32,000 bases of DNA, from contig JBBABY010000007.1 of NCBI GenBank assembly GCA_041657425.1, positions 30,001 through 62,000 on the forward strand, written 5' to 3'. The DNA is from an archaeon. Lineage in GTDB: Archaea; Iainarchaeota; Iainarchaeia; Iainarchaeales; CSSED10-239. Position 1 is the stretch's first letter. Every line of letters starts with the position of its first letter. A model generated the notes under the pieces. It made no database searches and was not told where the DNA came from. It saw only the letters and a program-made list of their open reading frames with translations. Both the position numbers and the translations under genes were made by a program. Positions 217 to 4,762 of the stretch are shown piece after piece.

Positions 217-422
217 GAGTTGTACACAATATGTGTACAGCTGAAATTAATGAAACTGTGACAATTTGTCACGAGTTGTCCCCAATTTGGGTACAACTGA
301 AACTAATTGTTAGATAGCTTTAAAAAAAAGTGAGTTGTCGACAATTTGTCGACGGTTGTGATTAAGGATTATAATTTGAGTTGGTGACAATTTGTCACCA
401 GCTGTACGATAAAATCGTATAG
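217..422 (+). repeat. array of six short hairpin/palindrome units, five of them sharing the frame GAGTTG-N5-AAT(T/A)T-N5'-C(A/G)(G/A)(C/T)TG
   Basis: Units at 217-243, 258-272, 273-299, 332-358, 378-404 and 402-422. The N5 arms differ between units but stay complementary. No credible coding frame. Confidence 0.75.
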
Positions 423-2299: not shown

Positions 2300-3604
2300 A
2301 TGGAAAAAAAATATTTAAGTGTTAAAGGAGTTTTAGAAAGTAAAACTGAAGATATATCAATCAGAGGATGGGTATATAGAATAAGAGATCAAAAAGACAA
2401 CATCTTTATAACAATTAGAGATGAAACAGGAATAATTCAATTAGTTGCTTCTAAAGATAAACTTAAAGTTGAAGAGTTTGCAACAGCAAAAGCACTAGGA
2501 ATTGAAAGTTCAATAATTGTTCATGGAAAACTAAGAAAAGAAGAAAGATCTCCACAAGGTTATGAAGTGGATATTGATTCTTTAGAGTTAGTAGGAAAAT
2601 CAGAAAACTATCCAATCTCTAAAGACTTCTCTGAAGAGTTTCTTCTAGATGTAAGACATTTATGGCTTAGAAGTAGAAAGATGACTGCAATCTTAAAAAT
2701 AAGATCAACAGTTATTGGTGCAATTCATGAATACTTTAGAAAAGAAGACTTCTATGAATATCAATCGCCAATACTTCAATCTGTTCAATGTGAAGGCGGT
2801 TCTTCTTTATTCAAAGTAGATTACTTTGAAGAAGAAGGAGTTTTCTTAGCTCAGACTTGGCAACTATATGCTGAACCAGCAATCTTTTCTTTAGGAAAGA
2901 TTTATACAATTGCTCCATCTTTTAGAGCAGAGAAAAGTAAAACATCAAGACACCTTACAGAATACTGGCATGCAGAGATGGAAGGGGCATGGATTGATTT
3001 CGAGCAACTTCAAGATTATGGAGAAGGATTAATCAAGCATGTAATCAAAACAGTTCTTTCTAAACATAAAGAAGATTTAGAAATATTAAAGAGAGACACA
3101 AAGCTTTTAGAAACTGCAATAGGAAAACCGTTCATTAGAATGACATATACAGAAGTCTTAAAACTTTTAAAAGAAAAAGCAGATATGGAAGTTGAATGGG
3201 GAAAAGACTTGAGAACAATTGAAGAAGATAAGTTAAGTAAAATGCACGACACCTTTACAATTGTTACAAGATATCCAAAAGTTGTAAAAGCTTTTTATAT
3301 GAAAGAAGATCCAGTAGACAGTAAAGTAGTTCTTGGCTTTGATTGTATAGGTCCAGAAGGTTATGGAGAAATTATTGGAGCAAGTGAAAGAGAGCCAGAC
3401 CTAGAAAAGATAAAGAAAAGATTATTAGACGATGGAGAAGATCCAAAGCACTATGAGTTTTATCTAGACACAAGAAGATACGGTTCAGTTCCACATGCAG
3501 GTTTTGGTATGGGTGTTGAAAGACTTATCGCCTACATCACAGGAGTAGACAACATCAAAGACACAATTCCATTCCCAAGAACAATGGTTCGTTTCAAACC
3601 TTAG
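2300..3604 (+). CDS. asnS: asparaginyl-tRNA synthetase (class IIb, archaeal-size)
   Basis: N-terminal OB-fold region. Motif 2 FRAEKSKTSRHLTEYWHAEME and C-terminal GFGMGVERLIAYITG..IPFPRT are AsnRS-like rather than AspRS-like. Confidence 0.8.
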   Translation: MEKKYLSVKGVLESKTEDISIRGWVYRIRDQKDNIFITIRDETGIIQLVASKDKLKVEEFATAKALGIESSIIVHGKLRKEERSPQGYEVDIDSLELVGKSENYPISKDFSEEFLLDVRHLWLRSRKMTAILKIRSTVIGAIHEYFRKEDFYEYQSPILQSVQCEGGSSLFKVDYFEEEGVFLAQTWQLYAEPAIFSLGKIYTIAPSFRAEKSKTSRHLTEYWHAEMEGAWIDFEQLQDYGEGLIKHVIKTVLSKHKEDLEILKRDTKLLETAIGKPFIRMTYTEVLKLLKEKADMEVEWGKDLRTIEEDKLSKMHDTFTIVTRYPKVVKAFYMKEDPVDSKVVLGFDCIGPEGYGEIIGASEREPDLEKIKKRLLDDGEDPKHYEFYLDTRRYGSVPHAGFGMGVERLIAYITGVDNIKDTIPFPRTMVRFKP

Positions 3605-3637
3605 AAGATAAAGATTTTTTTTCTTTATTTTTCTTTT

Positions 3638-3711
3638 GCCCTAGTAGCTTAGCTGGTTAGAGCAACCGACTGTTAATCGGTAGATCGTAGGTTCAAATCC
3701 TACCTGGGGCG
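3638..3711 (+). tRNA. tRNA-Asn (anticodon GTT)
   Basis: Cloverleaf folded by hand. Acceptor GCCCTAG/CTGGGGC, anticodon arm ACCGA-CTGTTAA-TCGGT, T-loop GGTTCAAATCC. No encoded CCA. Confidence 0.9.
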
Positions 3712-3772
3712 CATATAAAAAAAGGAGATGAATAACTTATGAAAAAGTATCTACCCAACATATAAATCAAAA

Positions 3773-4762
3773 TTGGATTATTTTCAAACACAAGAAGCAA
3801 TTCAATTTATAAAAACTGATTTTGAAAAAAACTTATCAAAAAAACTTAATCTTTTGCGTGTAAGCGCACCGAAATTCTTGAAAGCAAACACAGGATTACT
3901 TGATGATCTTGCAGGAACACAAACTCCAGTTTCTTTTAAAGTGAAATTTTTAAAAGAAGATATAGAAATTGTACATTCTCTTGCTAAATGGAAAAGATTA
4001 ATGCTTGGAGAATTTAAGTTTCCAATAGGTAAGGGACTATATACAGATATGGACGCCATAAGAAAAGACGAAGATGTTGATTCTACACATAGTGTTTATG
4101 TTGATCAATGGGACTGGGAAAAAGTTATTACAAAAAAACAAAGAAATATTAAGTTCTTAAAAAAAATAGTTAAACAGATTTACTCCAGTATCTATAAAAC
4201 AAAATTAAAGTTAAATAAAAAATATAAACAACTAGAATATACAATCCCAAAGGATATACAGTTCATACATTCAGTAGATTTAGAGAAATTATATCCCAAA
4301 TTAATACCAAAAGAAAGAGAAGATAAAATTACAGAACAATTCGGTGCAGTTTTTATTATAGGAATTGGTGCAAATCTTTTGAACGGTAAACCACACGATA
4401 TTAGGGCAACAGACTATGATGATTGGTCAACTTTGGAGAAAGGTAAATCTGGACTTAATGGAGACATTCTTGTTTGGGATAAAGTTAGTGATAAATCACT
4501 GGAATTATCATCTATGGGAATAAGAGTTGATAAAGATTCTTTGTTATTTCAACTAAAAGAAAAAGAAGAAACACACAAATTAAAATTGGATTATCATAAA
4601 AAGATAATCTCAAGTAAAATCCCACTTTCAATTGGTGGAGGAATTGGACAATCGAGGCTTTGTATGTTTCTTTTAGAGAAAGCACATATTGGAGAAGTAC
4701 AATCTAGTGTTTGGCCAAAAACCGAAATAAAAAAATTAAAAAATAAATATTATATTTTATAA
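3773..4762 (+). CDS. asnA: aspartate-ammonia ligase (asparagine synthetase A), apparent TTG start
   Basis: Colinear with E. coli AsnA motifs: VHSLAKWKR, HSVYVDQWDWEKV, GLNGDILVW, LSSMGIRVD, GGGIGQSRLCMFLL. Confidence 0.88.
   Translation: MDYFQTQEAIQFIKTDFEKNLSKKLNLLRVSAPKFLKANTGLLDDLAGTQTPVSFKVKFLKEDIEIVHSLAKWKRLMLGEFKFPIGKGLYTDMDAIRKDEDVDSTHSVYVDQWDWEKVITKKQRNIKFLKKIVKQIYSSIYKTKLKLNKKYKQLEYTIPKDIQFIHSVDLEKLYPKLIPKEREDKITEQFGAVFIIGIGANLLNGKPHDIRATDYDDWSTLEKGKSGLNGDILVWDKVSDKSLELSSMGIRVDKDSLLFQLKEKEETHKLKLDYHKKIISSKIPLSIGGGIGQSRLCMFLLEKAHIGEVQSSVWPKTEIKKLKNKYYIL

Follow-up and report, generated by a model that had tools for sequence, protein, structure and literature searches.

Locus and layout of the array

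The stretch analysed here (32 kb of archaeal DNA, referred to as the window) carries at positions 217-422 an array of six palindromic units, upstream of a gene for a BRO-N/DinD-like protein (the BRO gene). The units are very probably copies, 35-60 nt each, of a palindromic segment found inside the BRO gene itself. An arrangement in which silent copies of an in-gene palindrome lie upstream of a BRO gene is not previously described, and a search of the literature on Bro-N, DinD or RhuM in combination with palindromes returned nothing on this element. The array is non-coding, as first annotated, and occupies the intergenic region between the end of an orphan gene of 232 amino acids at 211 and the start of the BRO gene at 572. 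The features of the locus are as follows.

214-252, + strand: unit 1 with its flanks; palindrome at 217-243; reads IELYTICVQLKLM in the frame of the BRO gene
249-307, + strand: units 2 and 3, forming one patch; palindromes at 258-272 and 273-299; reads NETVTICH-ELSPIWVQLKLI
329-366, + strand: unit 4; palindrome at 332-358; core GTCGACAATTTGTCGAC
375-425, + strand: units 5 and 6, forming one overlapping patch; palindromes at 378-404 and 402-422 (extendable to 399-425)
425-440, + strand: T-rich tract directly 3' of unit 6; terminator-like site made up of 399-425 plus ATTTTTGATT
432-571, + strand: putative promoter/leader module of the BRO gene, aligning with upstream regions in relatives
572-1408, + strand: BRO-N/DinD-like gene, 278 amino acids (Pfam Bro-N, E 6.6e-11)
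738-768, + strand: in-gene palindrome TTCAACCGTACCCGATTTGGGTACCGTTGAA, codons 56-66, with 12 of 13 pairs complementary in a palindrome scan

All six upstream units lie where the first-pass annotation had placed them, while a seventh, the one inside the BRO gene at 738-768, had been missed. The full form, GAGTTG-N4-CAAT[AT]TG-N4'-CRRYTG, occurs at 217, 273, 332 and 378; the unit at 258-272 is shorter and the sixth, at 402-422, overlaps the fifth. A repeat search recovered the same four starts as a direct-repeat family of four copies, together with the internal inverted repeats of each unit. The direct-repeat copies are 63-83% identical and are separated by gaps of 19-32 nt, one of which is occupied by another unit. 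Units are 21-27 nt in size, start with GAGTTG or GAAACT and have no open reading frames (ORFs) between them. The pattern AGTTG-N5-AATNT-N5-CRRYTG was found five times in 32 kb compared with 0.04 expected, four of the five inside the array. When N4-CAA[AT][AT]TG-N4' was scanned for, N4 and N4' were fully complementary in four units and differed by one mismatch in unit 3; the remainder of the 41 kb examined contained no perfect site and two unrelated sites with one mismatch.

The C:T mismatch of unit 3 was confirmed, as was the T:G or G:T nature, on the + strand, of the outer-flank mismatches (three in unit 4 and one each in units 1 and 5). Folding of the region, which had been proposed as a check, was far better than that of shuffled sequences on both strands (z -9.15 for + and -7.25 for -), as is expected for any set of palindromes. 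The orientation of units 1 and 3 is clearly +; that of units 2, 4 and 5 is ambiguous because their extended flanks are themselves palindromic. Unit 2 was correctly positioned, but its depiction without flanks did not hold, since it has an alternative in-gene flank, AATGAAACT, at 249-257. The abutment of units 2/3 and 5/6 had also been seen, although not its parallel, namely that 'double-unit' alleles inside some BRO genes are arranged in the same way.

A hypervariable palindrome within the BRO gene

The in-gene palindrome was examined in 170 distinct BRO gene copies from many bacterial phyla and from archaea. It measures 25-29 nt and stands at a fixed position, centred 104 nt before the codons for KAEPFK. 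Mean pairing at this position is 8.81 of 10, compared with 2.48 +/- 0.74 in the rest of the gene. In 152 of the 170 copies (approximately 90%) eight or more of the 10 pairs were formed, and inspection of the others showed that most hold a palindrome displaced by a small indel. In the predicted protein model the palindrome encodes a surface loop that precedes the DGK beta-hairpin. The palindrome is also present in BRO family genes with a different C-terminal domain on plasmids of Chondrinema, whereas dinD of E. coli contains no palindrome of seven or more pairs.

A total of 134 distinct 35-nt segments were aligned and tested for covariation, with shuffled and slid controls. Of all cells, 86.9% were paired, compared with 58.7% after shuffling and 24-41% in the slid controls; two-sided changes numbered 488 versus 167 in shuffles, and the covariation score was 0.70 versus 0.20. 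The claim that it is self-complementarity and not a fixed sequence that is kept was thus borne out in homologous in-gene copies. Synonymous sites covary as well: among alleles encoding E-L...Q-L, the combination GAGTTG/CAACTG occurs 21 times, GAACTG/CAGTTG 19 times and a mixed form once, and the constraint therefore acts on the nucleic acid and not on the peptide. Hardly any G-U pairs occur (approximately 10 of 1608 cells), one-sided changes number five versus the 488 two-sided ones, and among mismatches on the sense strand G:U is rarer than A:C. This pairing pattern does not look like that of a typical conserved RNA helix.

The palindromic segment is at the same time the least conserved stretch of the gene, with a nucleotide identity of 0.51-0.66 compared with 0.75-0.93 elsewhere. 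Within a clade at 75% identity or more, at least ten segment alleles were identified, and an identical allele was found on non-sister branches of a rough neighbour-joining tree built with the segment left out. Homologues P0031 and P0128, members of one 90% cluster, are approximately 98% identical past residue 68, yet they carry different segments with an indel of five amino acids. Taken as comparisons of sequence, these cases show hypervariability and mosaic replacement of the segment. We infer that the segments are swapped by recombination, of a putative mechanism and direction.

Several observations concern the surroundings and form of the segment in individual genes. Truncated 5' BRO copies with a different palindrome allele are located directly upstream of the full-length gene in L121 (305-600) and L065 (2484-2928), and two loci, L054 and L056, hold two BRO gene copies each, in tandem in L056. 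Partial duplication upstream of BRO genes is therefore a recurrent event. The gene for homologue P0016 (L221, 1254-1310) contains two tandem palindromic units in frame, encoding ESVTNCNQL-NDKILQL, and has six extra residues.

Upstream units as copies of the in-gene segment

A covariance model made from the in-gene segments was run on the window. The best match was unit 1 (213-247, 39.5 bits, E 7e-7; 19.1 bits on the - strand), which outscores the window's own in-gene copy (37 bits). Unit 3 (269-303, 31.5 bits) and unit 5 (378-404, 25 bits) followed, with weaker matches to unit 4 (336-354) and unit 2. Apart from the units and the in-gene copy, no match in the 32 kb had an E-value below 0.5. When 120 homologues were compared with positions 1-571 of the window by tblastn, the 25 best-scoring matches all fell on the units and their immediate flanks, and no match to conserved stretches elsewhere in the gene (WFSVVDV, for example) was seen. 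Derivation of the units from decayed large gene fragments was considered and dropped, as no other part of the gene was detectable upstream by tblastn.

Individual units correspond to in-gene alleles of other members of the family. Unit 1 equals the allele of the closest homologue, P0002 (locus L225; residues 57-69 VELYTICVQLKLI, gene DNA GAACTGTACACAATTTGTGTACAGTTGAAATTAAT). Unit 3 is identical to the in-gene palindrome of L074 at 27 of 27 bases, the C:T mismatch included, and its region was matched in tblastn by P0035, P0036, P0048 and P0073 (QLSPIWVQLKL). Unit 4 matches the in-gene alleles of L002 and L007, its core being identical to the in-gene core of L002, and its 17-nt core is also identical to those of orthologous upstream units in L170, L007 and L225. 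Unit 5 matches the in-gene alleles of P0013 and P0014, the core of unit 6 is that found inside the genes of L169, L170 and L090, and the overlapping pair 5-6 matches the double-unit allele of P0016.

The flanks of the units are those found within the gene (GAGTTG ... CARYTG AAATTAAT), with a few coding bases on each side. In archaeal units the 3' flank TGAAATTAAT (L-K-L-I) is the in-gene flank of that archaeal clade, and in an independent array of Paludibacter (L057, six units, approximately 255 nt) the 3' flank of the best unit, TGAAAAT (L-K-M), is the bacterial in-gene flank. The units thus have the features of silent cassettes, being partial, promoterless copies of a variable segment with shared flanks, and only the variable segment and its flanks were matched. 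The first-pass annotation, correct in much of its description of the array, had overlooked this identity of the units with the hypervariable palindrome of the adjacent gene.

Arrays in relatives

Arrays homologous to the present one adjoin related genes in L227, L170, L007 and L057; their absence from such genes had been named beforehand as an argument against a structural requirement. Locus L227 contains a sister gene with a near-identical promoter and an identical left junction, which is followed at once by a unit 5 identical at 26 of 27 bases. The slot of unit 6 is filled by another palindromic allele, and units 1-4 are lacking. L170 and L007 have units 4-6 in common, and their unit 5 differs by a compensatory change from GTGAC/GTCAC to GTTAC/GTAAC; two compensatory changes in all were found between orthologous upstream units. 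Counterparts of units 5-6 are present as orthologous b-c pairs in L170, L007 and L227, and unit cores are kept across lineages that are approximately 20% apart in protein sequence. In three cases a unit related to the in-gene allele was found in the array of the same genome, namely unit 3 in the window, unit c in L170 and unit a in L007. These alignments show the array to be gaining, losing and replacing units at the level of sequence.

Outside genes, units of this family were found only in L057, L103, L136, L007, L170, L225 and L227, in addition to orphans in phage contigs. In the latter, contigs L177-L190 from IMG/VR, units with this type of palindrome stand singly or in pairs (for example L188, 7400-7470, and L179, 11640-11725), outside any intact BRO gene.

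The BRO protein and the upstream module

At least 8000 homologues of the BRO protein, with 55-82% identity, were identified in Woesearchaeota, Nanoarchaeia, bacteria of the Candidate Phyla Radiation (CPR), Bacteroidota, Firmicutes, Proteobacteria and others. The small genomes of CPR bacteria and DPANN archaea commonly encode proteins of the BRO-N, DinD-like or RhuM type. Against the DinD equivalog NF008573 (NCBIfam) the protein scored 18.7 bits where the cutoff is 242, over the C-terminal helices only, and it does not belong to that equivalog. The predicted model consists of a BRO-N domain and a helical domain; the only solved structure that it resembles is DdrC of Deinococcus (Foldseek E 5e-5, probability 1.0, TM-score 0.36-0.5), a DNA-binding protein of the DNA-damage response. 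A sequence search of the PDB with the homologue alignment gave only chance matches to globins. Collections of phages and plasmids contained four phage and 22 plasmid records of the gene family, which is for this reason regarded as mostly chromosomal.

The module at 432-571 comprises TTTTGTGAAAT (434-444), TTTAAA (455-460), GCACTGGACAG (499-509), CCCTCCC (513-519) and GGGAGG (558-563), and can be aligned to the sequence that precedes BRO and YhcG genes in L002, L003, L007, L170 and L227. Its assignment as the promoter is putative. The CCCTCCC element is able to pair with the Shine-Dalgarno-like GGGAGG. In L002, L003, L007, L170, L225 and L227 a conserved module with the elements TTTTGTGAAATTGAAATTTTC, AAAGATTTATAT and GCACTGGACAGCTACCCC precedes both BRO and YhcG (DUF1016) genes of this archaeal clade. 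Unit 6 and the T-rich tract that follows it look like a terminator, a function suggested by their sequence.

Interpretation of the array

The explanation tentatively preferred here, with a chance put slightly short of even, is that the array is a bank of silent cassette copies in short-patch exchange with the in-gene segment. The upstream units would be alternative alleles of that segment, stored with their short in-gene flanks, and 738-768 would be the expressed copy. Exchange between bank and gene would take place by short-patch recombination or template switching, nucleated by the hairpin- or cruciform-forming palindrome and the conserved flanks, and the same process would cause the array to grow, shrink and swap units. 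A candidate benefit is diversification of a loop in a DNA-binding and possibly defence-related protein. The palindromy of all alleles could reflect selection for a hairpin or cruciform, or self-maintenance through arm-to-arm template switching, with which the small number of one-sided changes fits. Within this explanation, a bank that donates sequence back to the gene and one that is no more than one-way debris are given about equal odds; taken by itself, donation is doubtful.

Several points weigh against a cassette bank. Arrays are rare, 139 of 163 loci being without an upstream palindrome and only about six having units of this family, so that a bank cannot explain the variation of the segment in most lineages. 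The shared flanks, of 6 and approximately 14 nt, are short for homologous recombination. Some units would be poor donors, because TGA follows unit 4 and TAG lies within unit 6, and unit c of L170 is decayed. Switching within a population was not seen, the evidence consisting of mosaic genes, alleles that run against the tree, and related unit and gene alleles within a genome. A bank gives no reason for the palindromy of every allele, which is in fact unexplained by any of the readings, including those set out below, and it leaves the similar but hardly variable palindrome of RhuM genes unaccounted for. The array is also placed just upstream of a promoter, beside the gene of a DNA-binding protein, where a regulatory site fits equally well.

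A wider proposal, considered unlikely, is that BRO-N genes carry a built-in, hairpin-forming recombination hotspot at which a palindromic cassette, coding for a loop on the surface of the DNA-binding domain, is exchanged time and again. Upstream silent banks, paralogues and incoming DNA would all serve as sources of replacement, the palindrome would both trigger exchange and keep its own symmetry, and RhuM genes may bear an element of the same kind. Recognition of the palindrome by the very peptide that it encodes was also considered, and is implausible for a dozen or more alleles.

Among other explanations, the units may be binding sites, possibly as cruciforms or hairpins, for the BRO-N/DdrC-like protein or a partner, forming an autoregulatory set in which array and in-gene palindrome flank the promoter. 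Such a role is unlikely on balance, yet it is a serious rival to the cassette bank, and a number of findings agree with it. The protein has a BRO-N domain and its model resembles DNA-binding DdrC; the array is directly upstream of the conserved promoter module, and in three lineages conservation of the unit cores equals or exceeds that of the promoter. The near absence of G-U points to DNA and not RNA as the form in which the palindrome acts. A related palindrome is present in RhuM genes in another frame, where a shared N-terminal region is suggested by motif resemblance, and BRO family genes are found within rep-par modules of Chondrinema plasmids. For an operator array, position and type of protein would fit, but the diversity of the units argues against a single sequence-specific protein, which would need to accept six different inner sequences. 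Furthermore, most homologues have no upstream site, units are lost and swapped among close relatives, and binding provides no reason for upstream units to match in-gene alleles of sister lineages together with their coding flanks.

The units could instead be one-way debris, that is, patches of earlier or foreign BRO alleles left after partial duplications or gene replacements and now without function; intrastrand template switching would keep the arms complementary without selection. The truncated 5' fragments upstream of full genes in L121 and L065, the paired genes of L054 and L056, the rarity of arrays and the orphan units in phage contigs are all in line with debris, as is visible decay (a TAG within unit 6, the three wobbles of unit 4, and unit c of L170). 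The better conserved parts of the gene, however, have left no trace in the window, and six fragments would all have to have been trimmed alike to 35-60 nt. Unit cores conserved across the diverged lineages mentioned above and the two compensatory changes in orthologous non-coding units argue further against it, and debris is held to be rather unlikely.

Of the structural readings, one in terms of RNA is the weakest, and it is improbable. The units would then be + strand RNA hairpins, either stabilising or terminating the 3' untranslated region of the upstream gene or forming a small RNA of sponge or ToxI type; as a sponge, a multi-hairpin RNA would titrate a factor that also binds the hairpin of the BRO mRNA. 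The strong folding of the + strand agrees with this, as do the terminator-like appearance of unit 6 with its T-run and the location of every array after a co-directional gene. Of nine transition-type mismatches in the upstream units, eight are G:T on the + strand (tallied by eye), and strand-specific wobbles had been put forward in the first-pass annotation as evidence of structure. This argument turned out to be weak: the far larger in-gene set is nearly without G-U, shows no sense-strand bias of that kind and leans the opposite way, A:C being favoured over G:U, while the bias of the upstream units to + strand G:T may stem from strand mutation bias because the GC skew is positive. No Rfam family was found for the region, even at E-values up to 5. 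The suggestion of a structured 5' leader is likewise unlikely, since the array is upstream of the promoter/leader module conserved across relatives and hence is not a BRO leader.

That the array is a replication origin, or a site for the packaging or attachment of an integrated element, is very improbable, and so is its being a degenerate CRISPR or REP cluster. The palindromes are repeated beside an AT-rich stretch, and origins are known from inside initiator genes such as lambda O and pT181 repC. The units differ from one another, however, and form a single cluster in the 41 kb examined, and records of the gene family are few in collections of phages and plasmids. The window carries archaeal genes of the housekeeping type, and a Pfam scan of its approximately 38 ORFs (some of them without a match) detected no gene for Rep, an integrase, a terminase, Cas or a transposase; nor do the precomputed Pfam annotations of the 10 kb upstream show one.

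Whatever maintains it, a 27-nt coding stretch is kept self-complementary across BRO homologues of both prokaryotic domains, yet is the fastest-changing part of the gene. It represents a constraint at the level of the nucleic acid that is captured neither by annotation pipelines nor by RNA-family libraries, and it offers a testable handle on the function of BRO-N, DinD-like and RhuM proteins, which are common in defence islands and plasmid maintenance modules. If a cassette bank is the right explanation, microbes would have an added way to vary a protein loop; if the units are binding sites, they would belong to a class of cis elements that are recognised by structure and lie within the very gene whose protein binds them. 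A hotspot, for its part, would be a new recombinase-independent mechanism of diversification in bacteria and archaea, probably acting in the neighbourhood of defence or plasmid maintenance genes.

Comparison with known systems

The closest working likeness is to silent-cassette systems, in a form that would be miniature and palindromic and in which switching was not observed. Gene conversion from silent cassettes is known for pilE/pilS of Neisseria and vlsE/vls of Borrelia. As in those systems, there is one expressed site with a nearby bank of promoterless partial copies; conserved short flanks enclose a core that varies and that codes for a surface segment, and alleles run against the gene tree. 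The cassettes differ from those of pilS and vls in being only 27-60 nt and each palindromic, banks are rare among homologues, and the protein is a predicted cytoplasmic DNA-binding protein and not a surface antigen.

Sites that act in cis are also known from within the gene of the binding protein, including parS in spo0J, the lambda ori iterons in gene O and the pT181 origin in repC, and the auxiliary operators lacO2 and galOI are located inside lacZ and galE. The likeness consists of a palindrome embedded in a permissive coding part of the gene for a DNA-binding protein, and of upstream copies. Sites of the parS type are conserved in sequence within each system, whereas here the putative site is hypervariable and only its symmetry is kept.

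Short, structure-defined elements clustered in intergenic DNA also bring to mind repetitive extragenic palindromic (REP) sequences, bacterial interspersed mosaic elements (BIMEs) and integron attC sites. REP/BIME elements are dispersed in hundreds of copies, with a GTAG-type head and an associated tyrosine transposase (RAYT). Here a single cluster was found in the 41 kb examined, units start with GAGTTG or GAAACT and not with a GTAG motif, and no RAYT gene or other Y1 transposase was found in the window. Integron attC sites measure 57-141 nt, have R''/L''...L'/R' boxes, end in GTTRRRY and occur one per cassette with intI nearby; the present units are of 21-27 nt with no ORFs or cassettes between them, and neither an integrase nor IntI was detected in the window. 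CRISPR repeats are near-identical with constant spacers, unlike the divergent copies and unequal gaps of this array, and no cas family was present among the window ORFs (some unmatched) or in the annotations of the 10 kb upstream. Iteron origins have identical direct repeats beside an initiator gene and an unwinding element; here the cores of the units differ, and neither the window nor the 10 kb upstream showed a gene for Rep, Orc or Cdc6.

The repeats of toxI, of type III toxin-antitoxin systems, are near-identical and form pseudoknots, and the toxin is an endoRNase. The array resembles toxI in its tandem short structured units followed by a terminator-like hairpin and a gene. Relatives of the downstream gene can also be toxic when overexpressed (PMC4257102). 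The present repeats are nonetheless divergent, the downstream protein is BRO-N/DinD-like, the in-gene set is without an RNA-like wobble signature, and the toxIN arrangement of near-identical RNA repeats upstream of an endoRNase of the ToxN/AbiQ type was not found. Baculovirus homologous regions (hrs) are arrays of two to seven imperfect palindromes of approximately 30 bp within direct repeats, in genomes rich in bro genes, and the bro genes of baculoviruses are linked to places where the genome is rearranged (PMC2830988). This likeness is one of architecture only, that is, palindrome arrays near bro genes: hr palindromes are more than 90% conserved, occur at many loci per genome and act as origins or enhancers, and no in-gene copy of them is known.

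Related palindromes and neighbouring features

Genes of the RhuM family contain a perfect 25-29 nt palindrome in the coding region, approximately 60-70 nt before the YNLD codons (for example CAGTTGTTCGGAAATTCCGAACAACTG). Its outer arms are those of BRO genes, read in a different frame and nearer to the DGK codons. It was identified in L059 (1174-1208) and in all 12 viral-contig homologues with a YNLD anchor among the 17 fetched (L205-L218) and, unlike the BRO palindrome, it is hardly variable. YhcG (DUF1016) genes located beside BRO genes possess a perfect 19-nt palindrome, GTCCAACAACTTGTTGGAC, in the VQQLVGQ codons (L003, 2216-2234; L007, 2021-2039), and a divergent YhcG gene in L169 (approximately 1219-1293, gene offset 270-345) has another palindrome, GGAGACAGTGTCTCC, at the same place, these observations being based on few sequences.

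Eleven co-resident plasmids of Chondrinema litorale (L191-L203) encode one BRO family gene each. Genes of the ParA or ParB type lie beside the BRO gene in six of the 11 loci, and an annotated replication initiator is near it in all three loci inspected with wider flanks. The in-gene palindromes of these plasmids are distinct in 11 of 11 cases, but the proteins are only 45-58% identical, so that the distinctness does not discriminate on specificity. Further plasmids of C. litorale carry the same C-terminal domain behind N-termini of the DinD or AntA type.

The window is part of a 46-kb metagenome contig with a G+C content of approximately 29% and has the character of an ordinary archaeal chromosome, encoding aminoacyl-tRNA synthetases, Kae1, Hjc, ribosomal proteins, eIF6, prefoldin and FtsY. 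A search for homologues of the 232-aa upstream gene, by which an empty site might have been located, found none. No conserved neighbour of BRO genes was identified across loci; their contexts vary, with only scattered recombinases and HsdM. Rfam searches identified four tRNAs at gathering score in the whole window, and nothing in 150-900 came near the gathering score. Genes for AsnRS, tRNA-Asn(GTT) and the aspartate-ammonia ligase AsnA are consecutive at 2300-4762, forming an asparagine-themed cluster. Just past the stop codon of the BRO gene, at 1424-1471, a G+C-rich hairpin (GGCGCGTCTTGCGCC), unusual at 29% G+C, is followed by an (AT)10 microsatellite.

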